Shown: positions 2,948 through 46,102 of the stretch, one piece after another
Layout: each line of letters opens with the position of its first letter
How positions within the stretch are numbered: position 1 is the stretch's first letter
Virus record (IMG/VR): IMGVR_UViG_3300005518_000003
Location: 14,564-78,563 of that record
Length of the DNA stretch: 64,000 nt
Source: a virus
Reading direction: 5' to 3' (one strand)
Notes under the pieces: model-generated
Told to the model about the DNA's origin: nothing
The model's input: only the letters and a program-made list of their open reading frames with translations
Database searches by the model: none
Made by a program: the position numbers and the translations under genes

Positions 2948-4684
2948 TTACTCGGCCGCTTCGTCGTTGCGACGGTGTCTCGACGTTCCGGGGAACCGGA
3001 GCGAGGAGTTGTCCTCTTCCACCACGAGTCCGAGACCGCGCGCCGCGCTGTCGAGAACCTGCGGATGGAATTGTCCGAGCGTCGCGAAGCTGCCGCGATG
3101 CTTGGCGATGAGCTGATCGGCGTACTTGCGCTGATCCGGTGTCGCATGTCCTGCCGCATGCGCAGCGAGCACTTCGCGATTCTTTCGAAGCGCGACGTAG
3201 GCTTCTCCGTGCGAGCGTAGGACGTCCGTTGCTCCCGAAACGTCGCCGAGTCCACGGACTCCCACCGGAGCGTACGCGGAAACCGGAGGGCTTTGTGGCG
3301 TCGTCGGAACCATGATGCCCGGAGGCATTTGTTCCGGCGGAACTTGTGGCTGACGCGAAATCGCCGGAGGCGGCACGAATCCGCCTGGCGGGGTGTACGG
3401 GCCTTGATTCACGACGGGCGGATATCCTCCGCCCGGTGGAATCGTCGGATGCGGACCGCCTTGTGGAAGTTGCATTTGCGGCATCACGCTCGGCCCGGTT
3501 GAAGGACCGGACGGAATCATGCTGCGACATCCGCAAGAACCGCCGAGGCCAGGGTACTGACCGCAGGTCGAGCACGGGGCTCCGGCGAGACCGACCGCCG
3601 TGCGCTGTCCGATTTCTCCCGAGAAAAGCTTCTTCCCGGTCGAGTCGGATGCGCTGTCCTTGAAGAGGTACGCCGCGAGATCGTCGACGGCTTTTCCGAC
3701 GAGACGAACGGCTGCGCCGAATCCGAAGAACTGAAGCGCGCTGCGCCCCATCGGCGATCGAATGAACTGCGCGACGACGAGCGGTGTTCCGGCCACGGCG
3801 ACGCCCGCACCAACGCGCGGAAGGAAGTCGTCCATGAGCGGAGCTTCGATGAAGCGCATCGCGAGCGCTTGACCTTTGTCGTCCTTGCGTTCTCGCATCG
3901 TCACGAGACGATCGATCACGTCGGCAGCGGTGTAACCGATGGCGCCCGTGACGAGGCCGACGACGAGCTCCCAGCCAGTGACCGGGTTCTCCATCGCTCC
4001 GCGACGGGAGTGACGACGGCGACGGAGACGCTCACCCGTGATGTGTCCGACGAGGCGCGTGCGGTAGCGCTTGCCGTGCGACTTGCCTCCGCGGCGACGT
4101 GTGAAACGTCCGCGACGGGTGCGACGCACCTGGCGCGGGAACTCGCGCGCACGCGCGCGACGACGACGACCACCTCGACGGCGACGGCGGCGGCGCGGAG
4201 CTTCGGCTGCACGCGCGTAGCGGCGGCGACGGCGGCGGCGCGGAGCTTCTCGAGAACGACGTGCGCGACCTCGACGACGGCGACGGCGGCGCGGAGCTTC
4301 CTCACGCGATTGACGACGACGACGACGACCACCCTTGCGACGTTTGCGGGCCATGTGCACGGTCTCCTTGGAATGAGAACGGCGTCTCGCCCGCACGCGA
4401 GATCGTTTTCTTCGCTTGAGTGAACCGCGACGGCGGCGCTTCGTCAAGCCCTCTTCTTTCGCATGACGACGGCGACGGCGTTTGCCGGCACGACGCTTTG
4501 CAGCTTTCCCGCCGAAACCAGCCTTGATCTGCGCAGGAGTCAGCCTGCGTCGTTTTCCTCTTCGCGCCATCTTTCTGCCTCGTTTTCGTGGGGTGTCTGC
4601 ATGAAGGACCACCGCCCGCCTCGAAGCAGCCTGCTCTGGCTCGGAACGCGCTCGCGAGAGAATCTCTCGATAGTCGACGGGCAT
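2948..4684 (-). CDS. Arg-rich (protamine-like) core/membrane polyprotein
   Basis: About 200 aa of poly-Arg tracts, then MENP, hydrophobic helices, a Cys cluster and a Pro/Gln-rich region with GLG sites. The start may be MARRGK at 4570. Confidence 0.7.
   Translation of the reverse strand: MPVDYREILSRARSEPEQAASRRAVVLHADTPRKRGRKMARRGKRRRLTPAQIKAGFGGKAAKRRAGKRRRRRHAKEEGLTKRRRRGSLKRRKRSRVRARRRSHSKETVHMARKRRKGGRRRRRQSREEAPRRRRRRRGRARRSREAPRRRRRRRYARAAEAPRRRRRRRGGRRRRARAREFPRQVRRTRRGRFTRRRGGKSHGKRYRTRLVGHITGERLRRRRHSRRGAMENPVTGWELVVGLVTGAIGYTAADVIDRLVTMRERKDDKGQALAMRFIEAPLMDDFLPRVGAGVAVAGTPLVVAQFIRSPMGRSALQFFGFGAAVRLVGKAVDDLAAYLFKDSASDSTGKKLFSGEIGQRTAVGLAGAPCSTCGQYPGLGGSCGCRSMIPSGPSTGPSVMPQMQLPQGGPHPTIPPGGGYPPVVNQGPYTPPGGFVPPPAISRQPQVPPEQMPPGIMVPTTPQSPPVSAYAPVGVRGLGDVSGATDVLRSHGEAYVALRKNREVLAAHAAGHATPDQRKYADQLIAKHRGSFATLGQFHPQVLDSAARGLGLVVEEDNSSLRFPGTSRHRRNDEAAE
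4180..4300 (-). repeat. Three tandem coding repeats, EAPRRRRRRR
   Basis: GGCGGCGCGGAGCTTC recurs three times on the + strand. Confidence 0.75.
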
Positions 4685-4759
4685 GACGGTGTTCCCACGT
4701 CACCCGCACGTAACGCTTGGGAGAAGTCTACGCGCAGATCGAGAGATTACGCAACAAGG

Positions 4760-5275
4760 TCACGGAACCACGATTCCGCGGTCATCGACGATGCATCCGT
4801 CCGGCAGCTCGATCCGATAGAACTGCTCCGAGGTCTTTCGACGCCAAAAGGAATAGAGCACCGCGGGTTTCTTGAACGCTCGGCTCTTGAATGGATAGAG
4901 AAGAAGCTGCGTGAGATTCTTCGCCTTGTTGAATTTATGGTGAAAGAACCCCGGATGCTTTGTGCCTGCTCGGTCGTAGTAGATCTCGTTGATCTCTCCG
5001 AGCTTGTGCCACGTGGAAATATTTTCTGGCGGAAGATCGATTCCGCCTTCGAACACGGTTGCGCTGCGACCAAAATAATCTGAACCTTCGTCGCTCTCTG
5101 TCTTTCCACGATCGAACTCACCGATCAGCAAGCTGCACGTGGGCCAGTCTTCACCACTCTCGTCGTAGAGCATCGCCGCGTCGCGAGCCGGCTTGACCCT
5201 CTTACTCCCGCTACCGAGACCGATTCCCGGAGCGCGTAGGTTGATCTCGATCTTGCGTCCCATGCAGATCAGCAT
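4760..5275 (-). CDS. Hypothetical virion-module protein
   Basis: 171 aa, co-oriented in the operon, GIGLGS near the N-terminus. Confidence 0.65.
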   Translation of the reverse strand: MLICMGRKIEINLRAPGIGLGSGSKRVKPARDAAMLYDESGEDWPTCSLLIGEFDRGKTESDEGSDYFGRSATVFEGGIDLPPENISTWHKLGEINEIYYDRAGTKHPGFFHHKFNKAKNLTQLLLYPFKSRAFKKPAVLYSFWRRKTSEQFYRIELPDGCIVDDRGIVVP

Positions 5276-5281
5276 GGAGCC

Positions 5282-6118
5282 TCACTTCGCTCGACGACTC
5301 GCCCACCAAGCTTTGATGTCGTCTTTGTACACAAAGCCGAGAACACCCGCGGTGACGACTGTTCCGCCAAGCATCCACCAACCCCACGGGAACTCCGGCC
5401 CGGCCTTTGGCGTAGTGCATCCGCCAGCCACGAACTTCTGCGCTTCGAGAAGATCGTCGCGCGCCTTCAAATCTTCCTTCGACCAGGGCGCGTTCGGATT
5501 CTGGATGTGATAGTCGACGATTTTGTTGTAGTCCGCATGCAATCGAATGAGCTCGCGATCACATTCGATCTTCGAAAGAATGTCGTCGATGACGAGCGAC
5601 GCGAAGTAGATCAAAGCGATGGCGATCGCTGTAACCGCAAGCATCTGCGCGATGACGGCAACGATCATCACGGGGATGAGCACCTCGATGTTTCCCGTCG
5701 AGTTGTTTTTCATCTGCGTGGCGTCAGCCGGCGTTGGCGTTTTGATTCCGCGTCGCTTCGCAATAATCTGAAGCGTACGAGCCAGCGTATCTGTCGGATT
5801 GTCCGAGCCGCCAGCGCTGATATTTTTGTCGTTCGCGAGCTTCGCGTTGATCGCACTCGAGACCATGAGCGTGATGAAGTCTTGCTTCGAAGGGTTGTCG
5901 TTCGCGATCCACTTTTTGGCGGTGGCTCTTGCATTCGCGGAGGCGAACGCCTGATCCCACGAGCGGCCCTGTACTTGTGCCCAAAACTGTTTGATGAGTA
6001 CGTACGGATTGAGCGAAAACGCAGGAAGTTTGAGCGCTGCGGTGACGTCGTCGATGGGTGCGCCAAGGCCCACGATGCGAAGTGCTTTCTGAAAATCTTC
6101 GTAGCGTACGAGGGTCAT
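5282..6118 (-). CDS. Membrane protein (internal and C-terminal TM segments)
   Basis: Long hydrophobic stretch plus C-terminal WGWWMLGGTVVTAGVLGFVY; GLGAP near the N-terminus. Confidence 0.7.
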   Translation of the reverse strand: MTLVRYEDFQKALRIVGLGAPIDDVTAALKLPAFSLNPYVLIKQFWAQVQGRSWDQAFASANARATAKKWIANDNPSKQDFITLMVSSAINAKLANDKNISAGGSDNPTDTLARTLQIIAKRRGIKTPTPADATQMKNNSTGNIEVLIPVMIVAVIAQMLAVTAIAIALIYFASLVIDDILSKIECDRELIRLHADYNKIVDYHIQNPNAPWSKEDLKARDDLLEAQKFVAGGCTTPKAGPEFPWGWWMLGGTVVTAGVLGFVYKDDIKAWWASRRAK

Positions 6119-7002
6119 CGGCTTCTCACCTTTCGAATGACGACGGCAGCGAGAGCCGACGCAGCGACGATACCACCGCCGACCACGGCCGCCTGCTTGT
6201 TCGTGAGCTTCGGAAGTGAGGGCAGATCGGGAAAGAAATCGCCAAGCTCACCGAGACCACGAACGAGACCGCGAATCGGCTTCGCGAGCTGCGGTGCTGC
6301 GGCTTGGACGCCCTGACCGACGTTATACCAAACCTGTTCTTGCGGATCCGGACCGAGCACCATCTCGCTCGGAAGTTGATGGTACTGGCCGTCACTTCCA
6401 AGACCAAGCACCGGTAGTGCTCCGATTCCGACGAACTCGGCTTGAAGACCCGCGTACGCCGGATCCTTCCACGGGTTCATGCGTGTCTCACGCGACGCCT
6501 TCGCCTTTTCACCCGCCGTGAAGCGCGGCGTGGTCGCATCGAGTGGAAACCATTTCCCATCTTCGAGTTTCACTTCGCAAATCACGTGCTGTTGATGCTC
6601 CGACCCGAAGAACTGGCGAACAATCTCAACTTCGAGTCCCGACGCCGCGCAAAGCGACGCGAGTGCCGTCACGAAGCCATCGCAATCCTCGATCGGAATG
6701 CACGCCAAGGCCCCTTCAACGCAGAGCGTGATCGGCGCGGCTTGGATCAACTCCGTGCCCGGTGGATCGTGCGTGTACCCAATGCTTCGTTTGCAATGGT
6801 TGAAGTGCGCGGTCGCTTTCTCTTTGTTCGTTCGCGGAAACATCGCTTGGCGAAGGATGTTGCCCGCGAAGCTGCGAAAAATTGGCATGGGAGCAGCCTC
6901 CCGAACCTTTTCGCAGATTTTGTGCAGCGACTTTTGGATCCCTTCCTCGCCGTCCGGATACGACTCACGAAGGTACGGAACGCCAGCGGAGGAGGTGTTC
7001 AT
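6115..7002 (-). CDS. Transglutaminase-like cysteine protease with C-terminal membrane anchor
   Basis: DCDG (Cys), QHVICEV (His) and WFPLDAT (Asp) in the order of the transglutaminase-core triad; C-terminal TM followed by a basic tail. Confidence 0.8.
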   Translation of the reverse strand: MNTSSAGVPYLRESYPDGEEGIQKSLHKICEKVREAAPMPIFRSFAGNILRQAMFPRTNKEKATAHFNHCKRSIGYTHDPPGTELIQAAPITLCVEGALACIPIEDCDGFVTALASLCAASGLEVEIVRQFFGSEHQQHVICEVKLEDGKWFPLDATTPRFTAGEKAKASRETRMNPWKDPAYAGLQAEFVGIGALPVLGLGSDGQYHQLPSEMVLGPDPQEQVWYNVGQGVQAAAPQLAKPIRGLVRGLGELGDFFPDLPSLPKLTNKQAAVVGGGIVAASALAAVVIRKVRSR

Positions 7003-7005
7003 CGA

Positions 7006-7398
7006 TCAGTCCTGAATGCACATATACGGGAAGTTCGGCATTCCCGTAGGAACGGAGTGATATCCCGGAGGACACGGATTCGCTTTCGGGTTGGAAAGAT
7101 TCTGCGCGAGCTGACTCGCAACATTTGCAAGATTGACGGGTTGCAATTGCGGCGGCGGCTGCGGTGGTGGCGTCGTATCGACCGGCTTGACGTTTCCAGG
7201 CGGACCGGTTGTCGTCGGCGTCGATCCAGGAGGAAGCGGTTGCTTTCCGCTCGCGATGTCCTCGGTCGTCGATTTCTTCGTAAGGTAGTTCGTGAGGAGA
7301 ACGGCGACGGTCGTTGTTATCGCGGCTGTTGCCCCGGCAATAAGGAGCTGCATCCCCGTGCTCTCGACCGGATTTCTTCGCGCTCTTCGCATCACCAC
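7006..7398 (-). CDS. Small membrane protein with RRNP leader
   Basis: MRRARRNPVES, then a TM helix and a Pro/Thr-rich tail. Confidence 0.7.
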   Translation of the reverse strand: MVMRRARRNPVESTGMQLLIAGATAAITTTVAVLLTNYLTKKSTTEDIASGKQPLPPGSTPTTTGPPGNVKPVDTTPPPQPPPQLQPVNLANVASQLAQNLSNPKANPCPPGYHSVPTGMPNFPYMCIQD

Positions 7399-7970
7399 AC
7401 CGGAAGCGGGTTGGCTGGGAGCAGAAACCCAATCTGCGAAGCGATGGCTTGAACGCTCTTATAGAGCGCGTTGATCAACTCCGAAGAGAGCTGGAGCCCT
7501 TTCATCGCGTTCACCCATGCGGCAACGTCGTTCAAGAGCTGTTGGTTATTCTGCTGGTTCGGCTGACCGTACGCTTGCGGATTCGGCGCGGGCGGTGGTG
7601 TTCCGCCTCCTCCGCCTCCGCCTGGTGGAAGAGTTTTTCCACCGCCACCCATTTGCGCTGAACTTGGACGCAGCGCGAAGTAGAGGCCCGTCCCTAGGAT
7701 GGCTGCACCGCCGAGACCACCGAGGATGTAGAGCGTCGATTTTTTCATGACCGGATTGCTGCGTGCACTTCTTCGGCGTGCGCGTCGACGTTTTACGTAG
7801 CGACGAGAATAATCGCGTCGATCAAGGCTTGCAGATCCACGCGAACCGTGAGGAAGCCATCGCAGAGCTTCTCGTTTGTTCCTCGCTTGGACGTAAAAGT
7901 ACGACGACCTGCTTTCCCCAGGATAGCGGTAGGTCACCTTGTACGATTTGAAATCCCACATCGCGGGCAT
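7392..7970 (-). CDS. Membrane protein with basic domain, RSNP motif and TM
   Basis: RBS before ATG 7970; RRRARRRSARSNPV, then TM ending GLYFALRP. Confidence 0.7.
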   Translation of the reverse strand: MPAMWDFKSYKVTYRYPGESRSSYFYVQARNKREALRWLPHGSRGSASLDRRDYSRRYVKRRRARRRSARSNPVMKKSTLYILGGLGGAAILGTGLYFALRPSSAQMGGGGKTLPPGGGGGGGTPPPAPNPQAYGQPNQQNNQQLLNDVAAWVNAMKGLQLSSELINALYKSVQAIASQIGFLLPANPLPVW

Positions 7971-8034
7971 CCCTCTTTCACGCACGACGCGCCCGCACGA
8001 GCGCCTGCATGTCGTCAGCATACGACGAGGTGGG

Positions 8035-9135
8035 TCACTTCGACAATTCGGCCAATTTGTTGATGGTGGTGGCGATCTTTATAACGACGCTCAGCGCAGA
8101 GAGTGCGGGGCCGAAAGCCAAGGAAAACACTGTTCCGATCGTGGCCATGAACATCTCGAAGACCATCCCAGCATCGACCACTTTGATGCATGGATTTACC
8201 TTCTCGTCGTGCGACTCGAACATGTCGATCAGTCCCGCGATCATCATTCCGCCAACAGACGCGTGGAGCATCGTGAGCGATTTTTGCGGAAGAGGTTTCC
8301 CTTCGCTGTCGGTCGTCGGAAGCGTTTTGTCGTTTTTCTTTGCGAGGTCGCGTGCAAATTGTGCGAGCCGATCGCGCGTCCACGCGGGCATTGCGAACAT
8401 AAAGAGCGAAGAAACATCACCTGGAAGAGAAAACGGCAACGTGATCCCGTATTTCTTCAACGCGGTGAGCACACCTCCGAAGTCTCCGCTGTCCAGTCCT
8501 TTTTTGATGCTGGCCTCCATCGAAGCGACGACCGCTGCGTTGAATGCTCCTGGATCTGCGTGAGGATCGATCGCGTTCCCAGCGTAGCGAATCTGTTTTC
8601 CTTTGTCTCGCGGGTCGCATTGGAGATCGACTCCACACGTCTTGATGATGTCAGGACCGCGATAGACCGTGTTGAAGAACGGGTAGGCCCAATCGTTTCC
8701 GAGCTGAACAACCGCTGCGGCCAACGTCTGGCAATGCGAATGACTCGCAAGTTCGTCGGTCGTGAATTTATTTTCTTTGTTGTAGAAGGCCGCCAGAATG
8801 AGATCGATCACTTTTACGCCGCCGTGCGTGAAGATTTTTCGAAACGCATCGGCTTGAAGAAAAATCGGCGTGCCATTCCCGAGTAGATCCGCCATGGCCG
8901 TCAGCCGTTTCGTAAGCGCTGCGATCTCGATTCCTCGAAGCACGGACACTTGTGCGTACGTCGAGCTCACGGCGAGCATGCTCTCGATCGCGGATTTTTT
9001 CTTTGGCCTTGTCGCCGCGTAGACGATTCCGCCGAAGAGAGCAACGCCAGCACCGATGCCACCGTAAACCGTGAGCTTCGGGTGCTTGTGATAGAAGCGC
9101 TTCGCACTCCTCTTGACGTCGCTGACGAGTTTCAT
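8035..9135 (-). CDS. Membrane-anchored protein
   Basis: N-terminal TM ending GGIVYAATRP and a hydrophobic C-terminus; 366 aa. Confidence 0.7.
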   Translation of the reverse strand: MKLVSDVKRSAKRFYHKHPKLTVYGGIGAGVALFGGIVYAATRPKKKSAIESMLAVSSTYAQVSVLRGIEIAALTKRLTAMADLLGNGTPIFLQADAFRKIFTHGGVKVIDLILAAFYNKENKFTTDELASHSHCQTLAAAVVQLGNDWAYPFFNTVYRGPDIIKTCGVDLQCDPRDKGKQIRYAGNAIDPHADPGAFNAAVVASMEASIKKGLDSGDFGGVLTALKKYGITLPFSLPGDVSSLFMFAMPAWTRDRLAQFARDLAKKNDKTLPTTDSEGKPLPQKSLTMLHASVGGMMIAGLIDMFESHDEKVNPCIKVVDAGMVFEMFMATIGTVFSLAFGPALSALSVVIKIATTINKLAELSK

Positions 9136-9443
9136 GACCGAGTCGCTGAAATCACACCACCGCCGCCACCGTTACTTCCGCCGCCACCGATCTGATTTCC
9201 GTGTTCATCGACCCACGACACGTTTGGAGAGTATGGAGCGAACGCTGCGTAGACTCCCGGAACAGCAGTGGGAGAGATCGTCGTTACGTTTGGCTTGGCT
9301 CCATCACCGCTTGTCGGTGGTCTCGTTCCTTGGGGAGAGACGATCTGCTTCGGCCTAGTGGCGTAGTAGACCGCCCCGCCGATGCCAGCCGCACCTGCGA
9401 GGAGTCCAACGATCCACGCTGCCTTCTTTGCACCCTTCGTCAT
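9132..9443 (-). CDS. Small membrane protein
   Basis: N-terminal TM ending GGAVYYATRP; Gly-rich tail. Confidence 0.7.
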   Translation of the reverse strand: MTKGAKKAAWIVGLLAGAAGIGGAVYYATRPKQIVSPQGTRPPTSGDGAKPNVTTISPTAVPGVYAAFAPYSPNVSWVDEHGNQIGGGGSNGGGGGVISATRS

Positions 9444-9455
9444 CCGGCAACGATA

Positions 9456-9644
9456 TCACTGGTCGGACACCGCCACCAAGATCGCGATCAGAGTGAGCGG
9501 CCAAAACGCGGAAACGAACATCGCTCCGATCGTTACTTCGACCAATTCTTCCGTCGTCGCGCGGTGTTTCCAGGGACGGATCACGGCCGCGCAGAGGCCC
9601 ATTGATCCAGTAAACCCGAGAAGCCAGATGTGAAAGATTGTCAC
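9456..9644 (-). CDS. Small two-TM protein
   Basis: GTG start just after the stop of 9647..11158; two hydrophobic segments. Confidence 0.5.
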   Translation of the reverse strand: MTIFHIWLLGFTGSMGLCAAVIRPWKHRATTEELVEVTIGAMFVSAFWPLTLIAILVAVSDQ

Positions 9645-9646
9645 GA

Positions 9647-11158
9647 TCAGAAGCCTCCCCAACCTCCTTCGCCTGAACCCGTCCCTGGATTTTGCGGAGG
9701 CTGCGGTGGTTGCTGCGGTTGAAGTTGTTGCATCGGCGGCGGCTGTTGAAATTGCGGTGTCTGCTCTTCTTCTTCGGGCGATCCGGCGAGACCACGACGC
9801 TTGGTGGCTTGAGCTTCGAGCCATGCAGCTCCCGCATCCATAAGCCTCTGCGACGGACGCGGATTCATGAGAAGCATCCCGAGCGGATCGACCTTGCCCG
9901 TTTCCTTGTCGCGAACGAGCTTCGCCTTGGTTCCGTCGTCCCACACCGAGGGCAGCTCGGTGATCTGGTACGGGAGATCGTCCTCTTCCTTCACCTCGGG
10001 CGGTGCAGGAAGCATTGGAACGGTCGTCGTCTCTTCCGGCTCTTCGGCCGCAAATCGTTCGCGCATCTTTTCACCGAACGCGACGTAGCGATCGAAAATC
10101 TTGAAACCCTGATCCATCGCCGTAAGCGGATCCATCTGCGTTGACGACGTTGGTGGAGCGCCGAGACCGGCTGCTTTGACGGCAGCGATCATCGCGGTCG
10201 CAAGACCTTCGACGGTCATCTGCGTGATCGGGGTTTGACCCGGAGGAGCTCCGACACCCGGTCGATGTTGTGGTTGTGGTGATTGCGGTTGCTGCCTCAG
10301 CCGCCGATTCTCTTCTTCGAGCGCAGCGAGACGCTTCTCGAGATCGGATTGCTGCGGCGGCGGAAACCCGTATTGAGGTGGGTAGCCGTAGGGCTGGTAG
10401 CCGTACGGAGCCGGAGGTTGCGGAGGTTGCTGCGGCTGCTGTTGCTGCGGCTGCTGCGGTGGTTGTCCAGGAGCAGCGGGGAGCCGGGGAATTTGGCCGA
10501 AGCCCGGTTGCGGGCCGTACTGGCTCGCCATTCGCTGTTGCCACTGGGCTTGACGAAGCGCGTTGATCTCGCCTTGCGACTGAAGCGAGATGTAGCCGTT
10601 GACGATGTACTGTCCGTTCGCTTTCCAGACGAACTGGAGCTCGTAGCGAGCCGGACCGCGCGCGATGTTGTGGTAGTAGTCCTCGACGTACTGTTTGATC
10701 GCCGTTGTCGGCGACATCTCTTGGTTGCCAACGACCGCGCTCGCCTCGAACGCATACCCAATGCTCTGACGCGGCGGCGGATCGATTCGAATCACGTTGA
10801 CGACGACGTCATACGCAGATCGTCCGTGCGCCTCGAGCCATTCGAGAACTTCGGGCCAAAGAACTTCTACTTCTCGGCTCGTCCACTTCGGAGCTCCGTC
10901 TGCACTCGCATCGAATCGATCAGGGATGGCTCCTGCTTTTCCGCTCGGTCTTCCAGGAGTTTTCGGAGCGCCAACACCCGTTTGAGTTGGACCGCGACGC
11001 CTGCCCGCGGGATGTGTTTTTTCTTTCTCTTGAGGTGGAGGCGTTGGAGGAGGAACGACCGGTGCTGTTTCAACTGGTACACCATTCGCTCCTTCCGGCG
11101 GCGGTTCCCAATCTGGTCCCTGACCCGGCGTTGCCGGATCTTGCGTTTCATTGTCCAT
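9647..11158 (-). CDS. Pro/Gln-rich protein (possible scaffold or tape-measure-like)
   Basis: 503 aa, low-complexity linkers, short coiled coil, repeated GVGAP/GLGAP. Confidence 0.7.
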   Translation of the reverse strand: MDNETQDPATPGQGPDWEPPPEGANGVPVETAPVVPPPTPPPQEKEKTHPAGRRRGPTQTGVGAPKTPGRPSGKAGAIPDRFDASADGAPKWTSREVEVLWPEVLEWLEAHGRSAYDVVVNVIRIDPPPRQSIGYAFEASAVVGNQEMSPTTAIKQYVEDYYHNIARGPARYELQFVWKANGQYIVNGYISLQSQGEINALRQAQWQQRMASQYGPQPGFGQIPRLPAAPGQPPQQPQQQQPQQPPQPPAPYGYQPYGYPPQYGFPPPQQSDLEKRLAALEEENRRLRQQPQSPQPQHRPGVGAPPGQTPITQMTVEGLATAMIAAVKAAGLGAPPTSSTQMDPLTAMDQGFKIFDRYVAFGEKMRERFAAEEPEETTTVPMLPAPPEVKEEDDLPYQITELPSVWDDGTKAKLVRDKETGKVDPLGMLLMNPRPSQRLMDAGAAWLEAQATKRRGLAGSPEEEEQTPQFQQPPPMQQLQPQQPPQPPQNPGTGSGEGGWGGF

Positions 11159-11182
11159 GTTGGTCCCTTTTCTGAAATTCGT

Positions 11183-12358
11183 TTACGCGACGAGAGGTGT
11201 CGCACTCGTGACCGGCGTGATCGCGATCTGCTGAATCGTTCCCTGAAGGAACTGAAAAAACGCTTCTGCTTGCGCTTGCGTATTTCCAGTAACGGGCGGA
11301 AAGAATTCCTCGAACTGAGGTGTGATCGTGAACGTCGTTCCCGGAAAGTAGCCTTCGCCTTCGGCGATCGTGTCGATGCGACCGAGACCCATCCGTGCAT
11401 GCGCTGTTGCACCGGTTCCTGGAGCGACGCCCGTGTCGCGAATGAGAATCGATGGAACGGTGACGTAGTTGTCACCAGGATCGGTGACCGTAATGGCCGT
11501 GATGGGAAATCCAGGGCCAGCCCCAACCGTGACGACACCTTGCGCAGGAAGACCTTCGGCCATGACGGCGAAGAGTTTCGCAGGACGGCGAGGAGCGATT
11601 CCGGTCGTCGTCGTAATGAAGACATCCGGCACCGATTCGTAGACGCGACCCATATCGACGATCGTGATCGACTGAACGCGACCTCGGGCGTCGAGCTGAA
11701 GAATTCCCTGCGCAGGAATCGGTGGCGAATTTCCTTCCGGACCGCCACCCTGAATGTTGAGGATCGCTGTTGCCGGGTCATATCCCTCGCCTGGATCCGC
11801 GATGTTGATGTAGCGAACCGCTCCGCCACGTCCACCCTTACGCGTGTCGAAGTTGAAGCCCGCAGGCGGAAGGCCTCCAAGCCACGTGATCCTCGTCGTC
11901 GAGGCCGTGTATCCGGCCCCTCCGGTGTCGAGCGCAGTTTCGTACGCAGCCATGTACGCCCTGAAGAGCGCATCACGTTGGGTCGGTCTCCTCGGAACGA
12001 CGTTTCCGTTCACGATGGGAGCGAGCGGTTCGCGCTGGTTGTTGTTCGCCCGAATGATCGGCGGAAGAATGAAATCACGACCGCGATTCGCAACGTCCAC
12101 GGTTACCTGCTGGATGCGACTTGTGTTCGTGATCGTCGGCGGGTTCAAGAGCGCGGCGACTGAAGGCTCAAAGCCGAGCACGATCGTACGCACGATTGGA
12201 TTCACGGCAGGGATCGTGATGGAGTCCGAAATGATCCGCAGGCCGAGCGCCTGAAGAATGTCTGGCGGGATGGGGGCGCTCGCAATGAACGGCTGAATCT
12301 TGGTCGAGCTGATCCCGAGCGCCTGGACCGTGTAAACGAGCGTGACCTGGGTACCCAT
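11183..12358 (-). CDS. Beta-repeat virion surface/spike-like protein
   Basis: Repeats of I/V-x-I/V-x-D-x-G-x-G-Y...P-x-V-x-I, typical of phage structural beta modules. Confidence 0.55.
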   Translation of the reverse strand: MGTQVTLVYTVQALGISSTKIQPFIASAPIPPDILQALGLRIISDSITIPAVNPIVRTIVLGFEPSVAALLNPPTITNTSRIQQVTVDVANRGRDFILPPIIRANNNQREPLAPIVNGNVVPRRPTQRDALFRAYMAAYETALDTGGAGYTASTTRITWLGGLPPAGFNFDTRKGGRGGAVRYINIADPGEGYDPATAILNIQGGGPEGNSPPIPAQGILQLDARGRVQSITIVDMGRVYESVPDVFITTTTGIAPRRPAKLFAVMAEGLPAQGVVTVGAGPGFPITAITVTDPGDNYVTVPSILIRDTGVAPGTGATAHARMGLGRIDTIAEGEGYFPGTTFTITPQFEEFFPPVTGNTQAQAEAFFQFLQGTIQQIAITPVTSATPLVA

Positions 12359-12370
12359 GCCGCGAGACTA

Positions 12371-12850
12371 CTATGTGCTAGGAGGCGAGACCACCGCCGT
12401 GGTCGGTTGACCGTTTTCTACTTCTTCGTCTTCGTCGAGAACCTCGTCGAATTCGGCTGCGTATCCACCCAAATCGGCCGCAAGCGAATCGAAAAGGGTA
12501 TCCGTGTCGAGGTACCGCGTGAGGCTATGTGTCGGTGCCGTTTTCTGGACGGTCCACCTCACCGGGAAACGTTCCGGTGCCGGCTTCTCGGGAACTCCGT
12601 AGATTCGCGCGCAAACTTCGTCTTCGAAGATCGCCACGATCTTGTGCTCCGCGCTGAGCGGTGAAGTCTCTCCGACCTGGAACTTCTGAAGCTCTCGCTT
12701 GAAGTTGAACCAGTCGAACGAAAACGTCTGCGGCACGTTGGACGGATACCCCTCTTCGCCTTCTGGACGCTCGACGTTCGCACGCACGCAGATCCGTCCC
12801 CAAATGTCAGCTTTCTTCGATTGTTCTTCCGGCATGTTGGTCCCTTTCAA
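12371..12850 (-). CDS. Hypothetical protein
   Basis: Co-oriented ORF with RBS and acidic tail. Confidence 0.6.
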   Translation of the reverse strand: MKGTNMPEEQSKKADIWGRICVRANVERPEGEEGYPSNVPQTFSFDWFNFKRELQKFQVGETSPLSAEHKIVAIFEDEVCARIYGVPEKPAPERFPVRWTVQKTAPTHSLTRYLDTDTLFDSLAADLGGYAAEFDEVLDEDEEVENGQPTTAVVSPPST

Positions 12851-12864
12851 AAAGGGAGCTTACT

Positions 12865-14814
12865 CTACCGGGAACGCACCTTGTGAAGCTTTTTGTCGGC
12901 GAACGAATAGAACTCGCCTTCGCCCATCACCACGTGGTCGATGAACGCGATTCCAGAGGCTTTGCAAGCATTTTTCATTGCTTTGGTCAGGTCGGCATCG
13001 GCATCCGAAAAATCCGCTCCGCCGCTCGGATGGTTGTGCAGGATCGCAAGCCCTTTCGCGCCGCGATCGATGGCCGGCTTGAGGACGTCAGCAGGATCGA
13101 CGGCAACGCGATCGCGCTGACCTACGTGAACGATGGCGACCCCGCGGAGGTCGGAATGGATATCGAGCAGGATCGCGCAGAGGTGCTCCTTGTCCTGCTT
13201 CGAAGCCCACGGATGCATCATGTTGTAGATGTCGCGTGAATTCTTGATCGGACCGATTTGTTGCGCGACCTCGCGAATCTCTCGAAAGTCATCCGCGTTG
13301 CGCTCGACCTTCACGAACGGAATTCCATCCGTCACCTCAACGGGATTCTCACCCACGTGTTTTGCATGTGGCCAGTGCTGTCGCGCGCTTGCTCGTACTT
13401 GATCTTCAGATTCACCACGAATGATGTTGATCGAGTACCCGTGACGATCACGCGCAACCGCTTCCCACTCTTGGCGGACTTCGTCGTACGCGATCTCTAC
13501 GGTCACGACCTTTCGCTCGCGTCCCTCGGCCGCCCCGCCACATCCGTGCTCGCAGCCGCATTCGTTCGCTTCACGCGAGATGCCACCAGGAACACCTCGT
13601 TGCGGATCCAACTTAGACAAAGCCTCGGCATTGCTCGGGAGCTTCCTCACCCGCTTACCAGTGTTTGGCCAGTGATAGAGCCCCTTCTTGTAAAAGAGCT
13701 CGCGCTCGGTGTAGCTGCCGTCATCCCGCGGCGTGTACGTCCGAACGACCCATTTCTTTTTGTCGTCCCAATACTTCACGAAGTGCGTCGCTGAGAACAT
13801 TCCACGATGAGCTTCATGGCGAAGCGCATCGTCGATGTTGTTGAAGTCGCGCGCTTCACGTGGCCCGCTCTCTGGAGGAAGTAGTGGAGGAGTCTCCGGT
13901 CCCGAGTGGAGAATGAGATGCTCCGATTTCATCTTGCCTTTAGAGCCGTCGCGCCAGAGAACGGTGATCTTTTCGCCTTCGACGGAGATCACGACGCCGG
14001 GATTGAGTTTCTTTGCAAGCCTTGGAAGAACGCCAGGCGCAAGCTGCACGTCGTCACCGCGTTGGAAATCGCGCGCCTGGACTGGGTTCTCGCGGAGCAA
14101 CCGATCGACGCCCGACTTCGCCTGTCGCAACGCCTCACCACGTGTGGTCGCACCCCAATGACCTCCACGAACGATGGCCGACCACCACGTGGTTCCGTCG
14201 TCCATGAGATATTTTTCGAGTCGAATGTTCTCGCCGTGGTAGTCGACCGTCTCGCGTTGTTGGATTCGATCGCGCGCCTCGACGGGGTTCTCGCGAACAA
14301 ACGAGACGCTCGGACGCACCGCAGGCTGCGAATTCGCAAAAGCTTCTGCTTCGCCTTTCGTCTTGAACGGGCCGTGATACTCGCTGCTCCGATCACTTGG
14401 TCTGCGGCCGTATGCGTACCAGACCGTGCTCCCGTCTTTCGGACGCTCTGATGGATGCATCTGATCACTCGAAACGATTCGCCAAGGAATCGGTTGCCTC
14501 CATGCCGGCTGAGGACCGCGACGAGGATTCTCTCGCGCACCCGGACGTCGGATCAGTCCAATGTGCACCGCGTAGTCGTACGCGCTCTCGTGCATCTTTC
14601 GTGGATTGAGGAAGCCGTCTTGAATCGCTTCGCCGACTTGATCATCCCACCACTCAATGATGGTCGCGTCGTTCTTCGCGTTGATCAGCTCGACGTGTGC
14701 TCGGTCACGCTCCTCCCAGGTCGAGAGCCGCGTGTCACTGAGAGACAATTCGGGCACGGAATGACGTCCACGGCGACGGGCTTCTTCGGCGGCGGCGGGA
14801 TTCATTCGAGGCAT
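12865..14814 (-). CDS. Multi-domain (polyvalent) protein with C-terminal RadC/JAB domain
   Basis: C-terminal E...HNHPSG...SDAD...DHVV JAB motif; small domains separated by RENP/GENP linkers. Confidence 0.85.
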   Translation of the reverse strand: MPRMNPAAAEEARRRGRHSVPELSLSDTRLSTWEERDRAHVELINAKNDATIIEWWDDQVGEAIQDGFLNPRKMHESAYDYAVHIGLIRRPGARENPRRGPQPAWRQPIPWRIVSSDQMHPSERPKDGSTVWYAYGRRPSDRSSEYHGPFKTKGEAEAFANSQPAVRPSVSFVRENPVEARDRIQQRETVDYHGENIRLEKYLMDDGTTWWSAIVRGGHWGATTRGEALRQAKSGVDRLLRENPVQARDFQRGDDVQLAPGVLPRLAKKLNPGVVISVEGEKITVLWRDGSKGKMKSEHLILHSGPETPPLLPPESGPREARDFNNIDDALRHEAHRGMFSATHFVKYWDDKKKWVVRTYTPRDDGSYTERELFYKKGLYHWPNTGKRVRKLPSNAEALSKLDPQRGVPGGISREANECGCEHGCGGAAEGRERKVVTVEIAYDEVRQEWEAVARDRHGYSINIIRGESEDQVRASARQHWPHAKHVGENPVEVTDGIPFVKVERNADDFREIREVAQQIGPIKNSRDIYNMMHPWASKQDKEHLCAILLDIHSDLRGVAIVHVGQRDRVAVDPADVLKPAIDRGAKGLAILHNHPSGGADFSDADADLTKAMKNACKASGIAFIDHVVMGEGEFYSFADKKLHKVRSR

Positions 14815-18493: not shown

Positions 18494-20275
18494 TCATGCG
18501 TCCTCCGCAAGCATCTCTGCCATCTTCACGCGCTCGCGAGACGTCTCTTCGGCGAGCTCGCGTCGTGTGAGCCTCTGGATGTACGCATTGCGCGAAGACG
18601 TTGCCCAGCGCTCTTCCTCCAGCGCTTCCCCAATCTCTTCGCGCGTCATGTCCTTTGGATACGCGTCAGCGAGAACGCGAAGACACTTTGCTTCGGGTCC
18701 TGGAAGCTTGCGAAGCCAGTGTTCGAGCAGCGCTACGCCGGTCGGAAGCTCTTCGTAGTCATCGCCAAGCCATTCGACGCCCTCCAGAGTGATGCGGTGG
18801 CGATCTCCGACCTCCTCAAAGATGCCGGCATTCCGACCGCGCTGGAAATACGCGTTGCGTGTGCTTCCCTTCGCCCCGGTGATTTGTGTGATCTGCGAGC
18901 GCGTCACTCCGCTTTCTCCGAACTGCGCGACCGCAGCCACGAACGACCGCGGAACTTTCACTTCTCCTTCAACCTTCGACGCATCCCCATTCGACTGAGG
19001 TCTCGACGCAACCCTCTTCTTTTCTTTTGGTACGACGACGATCGCCGGAACAACGATCTTTCCGACAGCGAGATGTTGCATCTGCTGGCGAAGTCGCTTG
19101 AGCTCATCGAGCGCTGACTGCGCCATACCCTCGGCTCGGAGCGTTTTCTCTTTCGCATCTTCGGTTGCTTTGCGCGACGAACCCAAAGCTTCAACCAACG
19201 CGTCGACCTGCTTCTCGAGTTTCTTTTCTTGTCGCTTCGTAAGAACCGGTACCTCGATACGCTTTGGGATACGCGCGGGAGATGGATCGGGTTGAAGCTT
19301 CTTGAATTTTCCCGCTGCCTCGAGCTCCTTTTTGAGTCGCATGACTTCTGCCTTCAATGCTTTCGGATCGTTCGCTTTCGCTTGTTCTACGGTCGCCGCC
19401 ATCTGCGCAGAGAGCGCACCAAGATCGACGTCAGCAAGTGTCTTGGGAGGCTTGACCTTCTTCCCATCCGGCGTCCGACTGGAGTCGAACGTCTTTCGTT
19501 CACGGAATGAAACGCATTCGAGCATCCCGTTCATGAGACCTGGCGCCCAAAACCAACCCGTGCCGCGTTCGAGCGACGAAAGCGTTCCTAGCACTTGCTT
19601 TTGCTCTTCTTTGGTCCCGTTGTGTTCGATCCAGTCCCCGAATGCGTTGATGTCCTGCGGTCCCGTGAGGCGAAACGCGATCAAGATCTCGATTTGTGTG
19701 AGCACGTCTTTCGCGATGCGTGCAGGACGCTGCGAAATGAGCGTCACACCGATGCCGCGCGTACGACCACGCAGAACGAAATCGTTGATCGCCCCAACGA
19801 GCGGAAGCATGTCCGCAGAATCGACGCGCTGCGGGACGAAGAGATCGCACTCATCGATGACGATGTGAAGAGGCTCTCGTTGCTTGTTCTTGAGGAGGTA
19901 GAGCTTATCGGCGAAGTCGCGAACGAACCGGCGCATCGCGCTCTTCGAGAAGTCGGAGAGATCGAGCACACACGAGAGACGATTTTCGACGACGTACTCG
20001 GCGAGGACGGTACCTCCACGCTCCTCGAGTGGCATATCCGCATGGAGACCCCCGAAGATCGGAATCGGATAGCCGCCTTCCTTTTTTCCATTGCTCCCCG
20101 CACGAAGCCCCCAGGCTCCGCCTGTCGGATCGATGACAATGGTCTGCACCTTTGCGTCGAGTAGCTCCTCGACGAGGAGCATCCCGGTGTGGGTCTTACC
20201 CGAACCGCGCTTACCGATGATTCCGATGGTCTCGGTTGCGATGTTCGGGATCTTGAGCTTGGGGGCGAGACGCAC
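18494..20275 (-). CDS. HerA/FtsK-superfamily ATPase (DUF87-like) with coiled coil and C-terminal HTH-like region
   Basis: Walker A GKRGSGKT, Walker B IVIDE, RGRTRGIG, SQRPA...KDVLTQ. Confidence 0.85.
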   Translation of the reverse strand: MRLAPKLKIPNIATETIGIIGKRGSGKTHTGMLLVEELLDAKVQTIVIDPTGGAWGLRAGSNGKKEGGYPIPIFGGLHADMPLEERGGTVLAEYVVENRLSCVLDLSDFSKSAMRRFVRDFADKLYLLKNKQREPLHIVIDECDLFVPQRVDSADMLPLVGAINDFVLRGRTRGIGVTLISQRPARIAKDVLTQIEILIAFRLTGPQDINAFGDWIEHNGTKEEQKQVLGTLSSLERGTGWFWAPGLMNGMLECVSFRERKTFDSSRTPDGKKVKPPKTLADVDLGALSAQMAATVEQAKANDPKALKAEVMRLKKELEAAGKFKKLQPDPSPARIPKRIEVPVLTKRQEKKLEKQVDALVEALGSSRKATEDAKEKTLRAEGMAQSALDELKRLRQQMQHLAVGKIVVPAIVVVPKEKKRVASRPQSNGDASKVEGEVKVPRSFVAAVAQFGESGVTRSQITQITGAKGSTRNAYFQRGRNAGIFEEVGDRHRITLEGVEWLGDDYEELPTGVALLEHWLRKLPGPEAKCLRVLADAYPKDMTREEIGEALEEERWATSSRNAYIQRLTRRELAEETSRERVKMAEMLAEDA

Positions 20276-39536: not shown

Positions 39537-39683
39537 ATGAAGCGCAACCCCACCACCTGGACGCGTTCACCGTTCGGTCTCGGTCTCGTCGGTCTCGCAA
39601 TGGTCGGGACGGGTCTCTTCGCCGCTTGGGCGTGGAAGAACATGAGCGAGCGCGAGCGCGAGAAATTCGTCAAGAACCTCTGA
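39537..39683 (+). CDS. 48-aa membrane protein with KRNP leader (absent from the ORF track)
   Basis: MKRNPTTWTRSPFGLGLVGLAMVGTGLFAAWAWKNMSEREREKFVKNL*; fills the gap between neighbouring ORFs. Confidence 0.6.
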   Translation: MKRNPTTWTRSPFGLGLVGLAMVGTGLFAAWAWKNMSEREREKFVKNL

Positions 39684-42502: not shown

Positions 42503-42713
42503 CGAATCCCTGCTGCTCGCTGAAGCTCTGGAATTTGATCCGTAGGGATAAGGAATCCGCCCTGGGCTGCCGTAGCCCAACCAGCCTTCCAGAGGGATTC
42601 ATAGATGCTCCAACCTTCGTCGCTCGGGACGAGAATGCGACCACGAGCGAGAAGAAGCTTCACGAGTGCGCGAAGTTGCGGAGGTCGGAGCTGTTCGAGA
42701 GATTTTTTCTTTT

Positions 42714-43514
42714 TCATCCGAACCTCACGACGGCTTTGATCGGCGTACCCTGAAATTGAATCGTGCGCATGCGCCCGCCGGGCGGAAGCTGGCGCAAACG
42801 GATGTACTGGTCAGTGACGTCGACCTTTCCGCTTTTGAAACCGTGCTTCTTCGCCCATGTTTGCGCAGTCTCCGGTGTGAAACTCGAACGCGGAAAGAGG
42901 AGCGTCTGCACGCGACCGCCGCCGGCTCCAGGAGCTTTCGATGCTGGACGTTTTCCAGGAAGACGCTTGACCGGATTTTCTTCAGCGGCTGCAAGACGTC
43001 CAACGACAGGGATTTGCCGAAAGAGATCAGGGCGGAAGTAGTAGACCGCCCCGCCCGTGGCGGCAGCGATGAGTGCGACCGTGACGACTGGATGCTCTTT
43101 CACCCAAGCAGCAGCTCCTCCCGAACCGATCGCACCCTCGTACTCATTTTGGTATTGGAGAACTTTTTGGACGTAGTTTTGCGTTTCCGCGTACGGAGGA
43201 ATGCCTCCAGCTTGAGCGACCGCACCTGGACCTGCGTTGTACGCAGCCACCGCCAAAGGTGTGGAGCCAAACCTCTGCAAGTTCTGTTTCATGAGGCGCG
43301 CAGCGCCGTCGATCGCTTGCGCCGGATCCATGGGGTTCACCCCGAGGTTTGCTGCCACTTCAGGCATGATTTGCATGAGACCCCGTGCGCCCGCTGGGCT
43401 CATCGCGTTCGGATTGAATCCGGATTCCGCCCTCGCCATCGCAGCGAGCAAGGCAGGGTCGACGTGGTATTTCTTACCGGCGGCGACGAAGAGCGAAGCG
43501 TACGGAATGCTCAT
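42714..43514 (-). CDS. Soluble lytic transglycosylase domain + TM + ENP + small basic domain
   Basis: AESGFNPNAMSPAGARGLMQIMP, AYNAGPG, ETQNYV; ATGA overlap fixes the start at 43514. Confidence 0.92.
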   Translation of the reverse strand: MSIPYASLFVAAGKKYHVDPALLAAMARAESGFNPNAMSPAGARGLMQIMPEVAANLGVNPMDPAQAIDGAARLMKQNLQRFGSTPLAVAAYNAGPGAVAQAGGIPPYAETQNYVQKVLQYQNEYEGAIGSGGAAAWVKEHPVVTVALIAAATGGAVYYFRPDLFRQIPVVGRLAAAEENPVKRLPGKRPASKAPGAGGGRVQTLLFPRSSFTPETAQTWAKKHGFKSGKVDVTDQYIRLRQLPPGGRMRTIQFQGTPIKAVVRFG

Positions 43515-44155
43515 CGGCGGAAGTATCCTTTGCGCCAGAGGACCGCAGCGGTCGCGATCGCTCCGACAGCGCCAACTGCAACGAATATCTTCGTCGTGCT
43601 GCTCCATTGGCTGCTAATGGCTTTCGCAACAGCGCTTGCCCACGTTTGAGCTCCAGCACCGTAGAGATGTACGCCATCGCCTTGGCCGGCGTTCACCGCT
43701 GCTTGCGTCGCCGGCCTGGAATCGAAGACGGCAGAACCGGCTGCCTTGTAGAACGCCGCGACGGCAGCATTCGTGTAGTACGGCACGTTCCCACGCGTCG
43801 CGGGCGGACCAATCCAGAACGTTTGCTTCGCGTTGTAGCTCGCGATCGCCTTTTTGATGTCGGCGACGGCTTGCGTGACGGAGCGACCGCCCGCGGCGGC
43901 ATTCGCTGCATCGTTCGTCCCGAGCGAGACGATAAGCAGATCAGGTGAGTGCGGGAGCTTCGACTGGTCGACGCACCACGAGTTGTCAGGTCGACAAACG
44001 GTCTGTCTCGTGGCCCACATCAGGCCGTTCGAGGATCCAACGCCCGCGACGGTGACGATGTAACCCTGCGCCTGGAGAAGCTTCGCGAGATCCGGCCCGA
44101 ATGCACCCACCGGCTCGACATGGCTGTCGCCAATAATGAGCGCGGTTTTCGCCAT
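43511..44155 (-). CDS. SGNH/GDSL hydrolase with C-terminal membrane anchor
   Basis: GDSH, GVGSS, LGTND, DGVH blocks; C-terminal TM. Confidence 0.88.
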   Translation of the reverse strand: MAKTALIIGDSHVEPVGAFGPDLAKLLQAQGYIVTVAGVGSSNGLMWATRQTVCRPDNSWCVDQSKLPHSPDLLIVSLGTNDAANAAAGGRSVTQAVADIKKAIASYNAKQTFWIGPPATRGNVPYYTNAAVAAFYKAAGSAVFDSRPATQAAVNAGQGDGVHLYGAGAQTWASAVAKAISSQWSSTTKIFVAVGAVGAIATAAVLWRKGYFRR

Positions 44156-44180
44156 GGGGAGAGCTTACCTTTCCCGACCG

Positions 44181-44774
44181 TCAGGCCGCAACCATAGGTA
44201 CAGTCCGCCCCTGATAGTCCGCGTAAACGAAGTCGATGTCGACCTCGACGCCCGCACGTTCGACCTCGCACACGCATTGGTACATGCACCATCCGCACTT
44301 CGGTGCGGCTTCGGCACCGTTTCGATCGAGAACGCGCGAGCACGAGTGCCAGTATCGAACGACCGCAAGCTTGTAGAGCTCGAGACTCGTAAGAAGCGCG
44401 CCTGCGCCAACATAGAGACCTGGGATGTAGCCCGCGGCTTTGAGCGCGTTCGCCCACGTGTTGATCCGATTTTGTAGCGTGACGACGTCGTCGGTAACGC
44501 CTTCGACGTCGAGCCACACCACGGTGCCTTTTGGAATACCGAGACGCTGGAGCGCAGCGATCTCGTCAGACGGATCGAAGCTGTTCGCGTAGGAGATGAG
44601 CGTGACCGCGAGTCCTGCGCGAAGGATGTCCGAAAGTTCGGCTGCCGATAGAGATACGACGTATCGACCGACGAATCGAAAACCCGCGTCGAAGAGCTTG
44701 AGGCTGTCCATGTATGTGAGTTTGACAACGGTATCCGCACCTTTGGATCCGGCTTCAAGCGTGACGACGTTCAT
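44181..44774 (-). CDS. DUF1906 / GH25-like glycoside hydrolase (candidate endolysin)
   Basis: GAD, GFRFVGRY, VWLDVEG, GYIPGLY, DID. Confidence 0.75.
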   Translation of the reverse strand: MNVVTLEAGSKGADTVVKLTYMDSLKLFDAGFRFVGRYVVSLSAAELSDILRAGLAVTLISYANSFDPSDEIAALQRLGIPKGTVVWLDVEGVTDDVVTLQNRINTWANALKAAGYIPGLYVGAGALLTSLELYKLAVVRYWHSCSRVLDRNGAEAAPKCGWCMYQCVCEVERAGVEVDIDFVYADYQGRTVPMVAA

Positions 44775-45669
44775 CGGCTTGCTCCTGTTCGTTCTCCGTT
44801 TCCCACGGGTAGCTGCACGAAACATAAAGCGACTCGCAGGGAAATTCTTCGGTGAGGGGGACAATGATCTCCTGGTCGCGCATCAGTCGAGCGAGTTGGG
44901 CGCTGGAGACTTTCATCTCTCCGAGCGACTCTTTGAGCTGCTCTTTCGTAATGCGAAGCTTGCGCTCTTTTTCTCCACGAGTCGTAGGTGTCCAGCTCGT
45001 GAAGGCTGCATCGGAAAGATTGACGCGAACGACCGCCTCTTCAAGCCCAAGCCACGCGAGAAGCGCGCTGAAAGATTCGCCGTCCCAGTCTTCGAACGCG
45101 CGCGGGAAGACCGTGCCGTAACCACCACCATCTTGCTCAGGACCGCTTCCTTCGGTCGAGATTTGCTCCCAATACGCATTCGCAAAGATCCGTTCGGGCA
45201 TCTTCTCGAAGAGCGCTTCCACTGTTTCGCGAAGCTCTGGGTCGGCGCGGCCGGCAAGTTCGTCTCGCGTATCACGAAGGCCGTAGTCGTTCCAATTCTC
45301 GTCCTGGATTTCTTGGGTGAGATCACTCTCGTCGCTTTCACTTAGAATTGGATACTCTTCGAGTGCGTCGATCGCTTCTTTCTGATCGGTCGGCGCAATG
45401 TCGATGCGAACGAAGATGCCGCTGCTTCCGAGATCCCACCACGTTTTTCCTTCGGTCTCCGCGAAGTCGTCTTTCCACACGCGATAGTTCGATTCATTCG
45501 TCGGCCCACCCGAGTCATACGAGCGCGAGTGGTACGTGTACGGCACCATCGTGAAGGCCTTCGGCCATCGCTTGATCATGTACTCTGCGTCGCTGTAGTC
45601 CGGTTCGTGATCGCGAAGGTACGCGAGCGGTTTGTTTCGAAACTCGCCGTACTCGAGGTCATAGCTCAT
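44755..45669 (-). CDS. Acidic hypothetical protein
   Basis: 304 aa co-oriented ORF. Confidence 0.6.
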   Translation of the reverse strand: MSYDLEYGEFRNKPLAYLRDHEPDYSDAEYMIKRWPKAFTMVPYTYHSRSYDSGGPTNESNYRVWKDDFAETEGKTWWDLGSSGIFVRIDIAPTDQKEAIDALEEYPILSESDESDLTQEIQDENWNDYGLRDTRDELAGRADPELRETVEALFEKMPERIFANAYWEQISTEGSGPEQDGGGYGTVFPRAFEDWDGESFSALLAWLGLEEAVVRVNLSDAAFTSWTPTTRGEKERKLRITKEQLKESLGEMKVSSAQLARLMRDQEIIVPLTEEFPCESLYVSCSYPWETENEQEQADERRHA

Positions 45670-45871
45670 AGCCGGATCCCCAAGATGCGTAGTGCGATAC
45701 TGGCGTCTGCGCGATGGCGAAGCTCCGAAGCAATTTTGGAAAGCCGCTGGTGTTCACGAATTTCTTCTTCGGCCGGAAGTGCCGGACGTCCGTTGACGAT
45801 TCGATTCACGATCGCATCCTGCGCCTCGAGATCAAAGAGGCGAGAGAGCTCCTGAAGCATCGCCGGTTTCA

Positions 45872-46102
45872 TCATCGCCGGACGACGACCATTCCGAGAC
45901 CGATGAGATCGTAGATGCCGCCAACCACCTTAGTCAGAGCTTTGCCTTTGACAATCGCGTACGTTCCCGATCCGAGAAGAAGAGCGCCGCCAAGTTGCGG
46001 AGCTCCCAGCACGGCGGAAGCGATACCAACGAGACCACCGATCGTGAGGACGGAATCGACGTTCTCGGGCGGATTCCGTTTTGCTTTTCTTCGACGTCGC
46101 AT
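45872..46102 (-). CDS. Small multi-TM protein with KRNP leader
   Basis: MRRRRKAKRNPP followed by hydrophobic helices. Confidence 0.65.
   Translation of the reverse strand: MRRRRKAKRNPPENVDSVLTIGGLVGIASAVLGAPQLGGALLLGSGTYAIVKGKALTKVVGGIYDLIGLGMVVVRR

Follow-up and report, generated by a model that had tools for sequence, protein, structure and literature searches.

What does a short Asn-Pro motif do at the domain boundaries of dispersed proteins in an uncultivated virus? The question arises from IMG/VR record IMGVR_UViG_3300005518_000003 (78,563 bp; G+C approximately 58%), bases 14564–78563 of which make up the 64,000-nucleotide stretch analysed here and referred to as the window; coordinates are window positions unless stated otherwise. 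In an earlier note, a recurring (R/K/E/S)-x-N-P string in otherwise unrelated virion-type proteins was read as the site of a maturation protease or as a packaging tag. We find the motif to be a short seam element, specific to this lineage, whose consensus is (R/K/E)-N-P-(aliphatic) and which lies between Arg-rich arms, membrane helices and swappable modules. Neither cleavage nor packaging is supported by our results; the explanation that we favour, tentatively, is a hinge at which one helix stops and the next starts, insulating the Arg-rich arms and the modules.

Occurrence, enrichment and placement of the motif

All of the Asn-Pro strings cited in the earlier note are found in the translations of the open reading frames to which it assigned them. 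The codons for Asn, Pro and Val vary from instance to instance, so the signal lies at the level of protein, and a DNA-level signal is ruled out by this variation between sites. The residue after Asn-Pro is V, L, I, T, P or R at all sites. The side of the proteins on which the motif lies is basic and presumably faces the cytoplasm or the virion interior.

Gene calling on the whole 78.5-kb genome yields 141 genes. When residues were shuffled within each of these 141 proteins, Asn-Pro was observed 80 times against 46 expected, [RKES]xNP 29 times against 11.1 and [RKES]NPV nine times against 0.74, each of these counts being reached in 0 of 2,000 shuffles; ENPV was observed five times against 0.18. 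The motif is non-random by this measure, with the reservation that three of its instances are seams of one protein. Asn-Pro is over-represented in controls too (observed/expected 1.25 for 354 phage proteins, with single loci reaching 2.16), so enrichment of the bare dipeptide is weak evidence, and NPV ranks 14th among the over-represented tripeptides of the genome.

Comparisons draw on five related IMG/VR contigs (38–77 kb) in which the structural module is syntenic with window positions 1–14814. Four of these relatives were fetched whole (G001, G003, G005 and G006; 69–77 kb) and the fifth, G004, is a half-length contig; five-genome comparisons comprise this genome (G000) and the four whole relatives. 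G003, G005 and G006 are the more distant ones, and they keep both the structural module and the Gly-rich anchor family described below.

Placement is as distinctive as frequency. Of the 81 hydrophobic helices of this genome and G001 combined, 13 have Asn-Pro at most 12 residues upstream, against one of 48 in controls, by a hydropathy filter that overlooked several Gly-rich helices bearing the motif. It stands three to eight residues before hydrophobic helices in five proteins of this genome and in about ten of G001. The boundaries at which the earlier note had placed the motif are confirmed, both ahead of transmembrane helices and between modules.

Small membrane anchors

Encoded at 7006..7398 (minus strand; Asn-Pro codons 7369–7374) is a small membrane protein with a single pass, in which the initial MRRARRNPVESTG leads into the helix. 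The product of 7392..8021 (minus strand; Asn-Pro codons 7752–7757) is a membrane protein composed of a small N-terminal domain, the stretch RRRARRRSARSNPV, and MKKST with a Gly-rich helix. The two align as paralogues. In homologues of the latter (P0008–P0011 and P0017) the string RRxARRNP is kept, three to six residues ahead of the Gly-rich helix, and a small-anchor hidden Markov model (HMM) built from the other genomes only scores 7006–7398 at E 1e-5. A borderline member of the family by the same kind of model (E 0.0018) is the 76-residue membrane protein at 45872..46102 (minus strand; Asn-Pro codons 46070–46075), which starts MRRRRKAKRNPPENVD followed by a helix. On the plus strand, 39537..39683 (Asn-Pro codons 39546–39551) encodes a 48-residue membrane miniprotein that starts MKRNPTTWTRSPFGLGL and fits snugly in the plus-strand gene array.

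The Gly-rich anchor is common to several proteins, in which an Arg-rich Asn-Pro connector joins it to differing small cytoplasmic domains (residues 18–75 of the 7392–8021 product; P0008; P0010). One such N-terminal domain, LKRGSS..NIRKL..QAVAIALNNARR, is present in P0008 and P0010 and absent from 7392–8021. P0010 starts MKRRRRNP-LKRGSS and P0008 starts MP-LKRGSS; in 7392–8021, NPV stands immediately before MKKST, the start used by relatives. Two genes within 8035..9443 (8035–9135 and 9132–9443, minus strand) carry the same Gly-rich N-terminal anchor with KHPK or MTKGAKK and no Asn-Pro, so the anchor does not need the motif.

Small anchors with the Arg-rich tail, Asn-Pro and helix number about ten in G001, many of them in tandem arrays and with Thr/Ser-rich ectodomains. 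At G001 43852–44819 are two proteins of mirror layout, running from ectodomain to helix to a C-terminal HxxRGGRR tail; in this lineage, therefore, basic tails flank helices at either end of the protein. For G003, G005 and G006, most of the small anchors open with a Lys-type MKKSTK and carry no Asn-Pro. Across a noisy automated table, the motif accompanies nine of 18 Arg-type tails against two of 17 Lys-type tails (Fisher p 0.027).

The protamine-like membrane protein

The longest arm belongs to the product of 2948..4684 (minus strand; Asn-Pro codons 3983–3988), a protamine-like membrane protein in which about 230 Arg-rich residues run into RRGAMENPVTGWEL and then into the membrane domain. Its basic tract is hypervariable, and the junction reads (A/P)-M/L-E-N-P or R-R-N-P in every long form and across all five genomes; this is the only protein that retains its Asn-Pro in all five. 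Two residues before the motif is a Met (residue 231) that four of five lineages share, and MENP is the annotated start of seven homologues. As judged from these sequences, nested long (protamine-tailed) and short products may therefore be made.

HMMs built from the small anchors and from the protamine-like anchors of other genomes give no cross-matches, so a single anchor common to all carriers is not supported. Homology between the two types is not detectable, so the recurrence of the motif is partly paralogy and partly independent, and the description of the carriers as otherwise unrelated is not fully right, given the paralogous pair 7006–7398 and 7392–8021. That pair, together with the control ratios of 1.25 and up to 2.16 and the modest rank of NPV, is what would be expected if the motif recurred without a function of its own, through paralogy and a general over-representation of Asn-Pro. 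We regard this as very improbable, given that Asn-Pro is found in both of the anchor types, that it is invariant across families of only 33–45% identity, and that it precedes so few of the control helices.

The SLT-anchor protein

Farther along the window, 42714..43514 (minus strand; Asn-Pro codons 42972–42977) encodes an SLT transglycosylase domain (Pfam SLT, 1.3e-27) and a helix, which the linker AAAEENPV connects to a basic tract and a C-terminal domain that is conserved. Homologues P0036–P0044 retain the helix and ENPV as well as the basic tract and C-terminal domain, and in most homologues the N-terminal SLT domain is swapped for a different, unnamed one; the family looks like a modular virion enzyme anchor. 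Across 12 homologues E179, N180 and P181 are invariant and the following Val is nearly so, within a linker whose neighbouring positions have insertions and deletions.

The RadC-tipped polyvalent protein

At 12865..14814 (minus strand) is a multi-module protein tipped by a RadC/JAB domain (Pfam RadC, 2.3e-28), its only embedded peptidase-like domain, to which at least four other modules are joined. Its seams read ARENP (Asn-Pro codons 14524–14529), VRENPV (14284–14289), LRENPV (14083–14088) and VGENPV (13342–13347). Homologues P0002–P0006 differ in their module sets, the variable architecture typical of polyvalent proteins; the multi-module build and the RadC/JAB end are likewise as in the polyvalent proteins of Iyer et al. 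2017 (PMC5512222), whereas a search of that paper for linkers and cleavage sites found no description of a conserved seam motif. N243, P244 and V245, and also E489, N490, P491 and V492, are invariant across P0002–P0005, and one module shifts position among these homologues while (R)ENPV remains at the junctions. The ENPV seams are absent from the RadC proteins of G001, G003, G004, G005 and G006. The module encoded at 14530–14814 (minus strand) is also found elsewhere (loci L001–L013), both on its own, as a protein of about 80 residues, and within polyvalent proteins of very large size.

An AlphaFold model of the whole protein is poor (mean predicted local distance difference test score, pLDDT, of 48), with single modules at 70–83. 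In this model the ENPV sites lie in low-confidence inter-module segments (pLDDT <50), so the sites fall outside folded cores, as the earlier note's placement of them at domain boundaries would have it. N176 and P177 open a helix at residues 177–182, and N243 and P244 directly follow a helix at 225–242. A Foldseek search with the model recognized the RadC domain and nothing else.

Such a strictly kept Asn-Pro bond might break by itself. FlhB and YscU self-cleave at N↓PTH (the arrow marking the cut). Asparagine peptide lyase chemistry also has precedents in reovirus mu1, at N42↓P43, and in the anti-sigma factor RsgI (PMC10328401), that is, in a virus membrane-penetration protein and beside transmembrane helices, and these sites resemble ours in having a conserved Asn-Pro near membrane-active or transmembrane segments. 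Asn and Pro are likewise invariant in our alignments A3, A4 and A9. We nevertheless consider self-cleavage most improbable. The RsgI site needs a folded domain and sits at a β-turn, whereas the motif here is found in Arg-rich tails or in the low-confidence linkers just described, a placement that in the latter case depends on a poor model. There is no similarity to self-cleaving families in Pfam or PHROG, and the RadC domain is all that Foldseek returns. The S-P and N-G-P variants carried by some paralogues would, moreover, abolish the chemistry.

Conservation among relatives and a candidate protease

The conservation in homologues by which the earlier note had proposed to check the motif is present: Asn-Pro is kept in four families, namely the small anchors, the protamine-like protein, the SLT-anchor protein and the RadC protein. 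Across genomes the picture is narrower, with [RKE]NP enriched in this genome (19 observed, 8.9 expected) and in G001 (18 observed, 6.8 expected) and not in G003, G005 or G006. Variants are tolerated, as in RESPV (P0002), ENGPE (a G001 paralogue), and KEHPV and KHPK in this window.

The sole protease-like candidate apart from the RadC/JAB domain is the product of 6115..7002 (minus strand), a transglutaminase-like Cys-His-Asp protein (Pfam Transglut_core, 1.7e-6) with a C-terminal membrane helix and a basic tail. Its triad of C107, H139 and D155 is invariant in five genomes, and the gene is syntenic in all five. In a maturation system, a viral protease would cut at x-x-E↓NPV or at N↓P and release the Arg-rich arms and the polyvalent modules, the membrane-anchored 6115–7002 protein being the candidate enzyme and the RadC/JAB domain a less likely one. 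Several observations fit such a system: ENPV is invariant within variable linkers in three families; the gene adjoins candidate substrates in the five genomes; the Arg-rich Asn-Pro start of P0010 stands where P0008 has a short MP start, and NPV abuts the MKKST start in 7392–8021; and in the polyvalent protein the seams separate shuffled modules, autoproteolytic domain release having been proposed for this class of protein (PMC5512222). The same paper, however, considers RadC likelier to be a nucleic-acid enzyme than a peptidase. The residue before Asn-Pro in the small anchors is R, S, A or K and not Glu, S-P, H-P and N-G-P variants exist, and a prohead-protease family was not found among the Pfam matches listed for 104 proteins (the last batch of which listed 25 of 36 families).

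Distribution among the relatives argues further against proteolytic maturation. The enzyme is present in five genomes and the [RKE]NP enrichment in two; G003, G005 and G006 keep the enzyme with small anchors mostly devoid of Asn-Pro, and the RadC proteins of the relatives are seam-free. A general code read by the conserved 6115–7002 enzyme is therefore unlikely, and the sorting or cleavage code of the earlier note is not a general one. On the whole, we judge proteolytic maturation unlikely, although it is the chief rival of the hinge.

Likewise unlikely is a maturation code of a new type, in which E↓NP or N↓P would be cleaved within the assembling particle, either by the 6115–7002 enzyme or through Asn-lyase chemistry. 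Known site codes of viral maturation proteases include (M/I/L)XGG↓X in adenovirus, (L/I)xE↓ for T4 gp21 and S/A/G-x-E↓ in phiKZ-type phages, and the adenovirus proteins VII and mu are protamine-like core proteins. The motif resembles these codes in being a short linker motif of virion proteins. Three families also have a small or hydrophobic residue, any residue and Glu ahead of Asn-Pro, and this genome, like that of adenovirus, encodes an Arg-rich, core-like protein. In contrast to those systems, an assemblin-like or adenain-like protease was not found among the proteins scanned, and relatives that keep the candidate protease lack most of the motif. If such a code were real, cutting would free Arg-rich peptides to condense DNA and would release the modules of an injected polyvalent protein; a virus of bacteria would then undergo core maturation like that of adenovirus, with another site and another enzyme.

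A proposed hinge between arms, helices and modules

Because variants are tolerated and relatives manage without Asn-Pro, a structural element is favoured over a chemical or enzymatic requirement. Both Asn and Pro are favoured just beyond the C-terminus of a helix. At the other end of helices, an Asx N-cap and a Pro at N1 are the main start motifs, Asn-Pro being the archetypal start, and Pro at N1 is found in 15% of caps, about three times the expectation (PMC4515027). In this genome, Asn-Pro stands directly ahead of predicted helices, the SLT-anchor protein excepted. Glu, Gln or Thr is frequent at N3, and the N3 residue is E, D, Q, S or T, a capping-box pattern, at nine of 12 junction sites against about three predicted from composition. 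We infer that the motif acts as a hinge, which would keep a helix from propagating out of an Arg-rich arm, or out of the final helix of one module, into the helix or module that follows. The arm would thereby be left free to lie on DNA, on lipid head groups or on the capsid.

Several features weigh against a hinge. Ordinary caps swap Asn, Asp, Ser and Thr, whereas here Asn hardly varies, and the adjoining Glu or Arg and the aliphatic residue after Asn-Pro are kept as well. None of about 20 divergent anchors has Ser, Thr or Asp in place of this Asn, even though GC-rich genomes disfavour Asn codons. The invariance of E-N-P-aliphatic in variable linkers, rich in insertions and deletions, of three unrelated families exceeds the usual need of a helix cap. 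In the SLT-anchor protein the Pro/Gly-rich basic stretch after ENPV cannot be a helix, so that no helix follows the motif there, and the helix boundaries in the RadC protein are taken from a model with a mean pLDDT of only 48. Together, the invariance in linkers, the strictness of Asn and the helix-free SLT site look like a short linear motif that is read by something.

Such a reader would make the motif a sorting or packaging tag, recognized by a capsid, membrane-assembly or packaging factor and loading its carriers into the virion. Every instance is found on one side of the membrane, the basic one, and most carriers are encoded in or beside the conserved structural module; this suits a tag, as does invariance within disordered linkers. 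We think this improbable, however: no reader protein was identified, the only tetratricopeptide repeat (TPR) protein (58581–59552) having been dropped for want of a homologue in any of the four whole relatives, and relatives with the same structural module carry the same anchor family without Asn-Pro. The hinge thus remains the reading that we prefer. If it is only a hinge, the motif is still a useful annotation marker for a protein module unknown to domain libraries; should it instead prove to be cut or bound, it would represent a new viral maturation or sorting signal.

Comparison with known systems

The motif matches no Pfam or PHROG family and, in keeping with the earlier note, literature searches found no published description of it. 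It belongs with known kinds of element, namely signal-anchor tails, arginine-rich arms and helix caps. A basic N-terminal tail and one hydrophobic helix are shared with uncleaved signal-anchors, which obey the positive-inside rule, and with the small membrane proteins of PRD1 and PM2, internal-membrane phages that also resemble this virus in having many small paralogues in the structural gene module. The tails here differ in being unusually Arg-rich, up to about 230 residues long, and in the fixed Asn-Pro between tail and helix. Similarity to PRD1 or PM2 proteins was not found by sequence.

Two further systems bear a superficial resemblance. The core of 2A ribosome-skipping peptides is D-x-E-x-NPG↓P, which E-(x)-N-P recalls, and type IV prepilins have a basic leader, G↓F and a helix, recalling the order of basic leader, motif and helix. 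The 2A peptide is ruled out, with NPGP found at no site, and so is the prepilin leader, with no site having Gly at −1, Phe or Met at +1 and Glu at +5; a prepilin peptidase family is not among the Pfam matches listed for the 104 proteins. A twin-arginine translocation (Tat) signal is ruled out by the Pro at the first hydrophobic position (RRNPV) and by the four to eight polar residues before the helix.

Genome and structural module

Searches of a phage collection found no close relative of the virus, scans of viral contigs with single proteins found none, and a metagenome scan returned solely an unrelated RadC locus. Few proteins of the genome are named by Pfam and PHROG. Tailed-phage capsid, portal, terminase, tail and prohead-protease families are not among the Pfam matches listed for the 104 proteins scanned, and the virus may therefore be non-tailed. 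The only packaging-like enzyme is a HerA/FtsK-like ATPase (18494–20275, minus strand), which matches PHROG 2666, labelled terminase large subunit. For virion architecture, a PDB profile search and an ESM Atlas look-up returned nothing, and the AlphaFold model of a 460-residue capsid candidate has a pLDDT of 30. The large uncultivated viruses of this group have in common a structural module in which no tailed-phage parts can be recognized, together with a membrane protein of the protamine-like type and arrays of membrane proteins with Arg-rich tails, and a conserved four-residue seam in their linkers is one of the few experimental handles on the assembly of their particles.

At the start of the contig (L015:1-639, genome bases 1–639) is a fragment of a Resolvase (serine recombinase), a sign that the record may be either incomplete or integrative; direct terminal repeats are present in relatives G005 and G006. 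Before the window, at genome positions 9945–10589, is a gene kept in all five genomes that probably encodes a Cpn10 (GroES-like) co-chaperonin, a family that Pfam finds somewhere in this genome.

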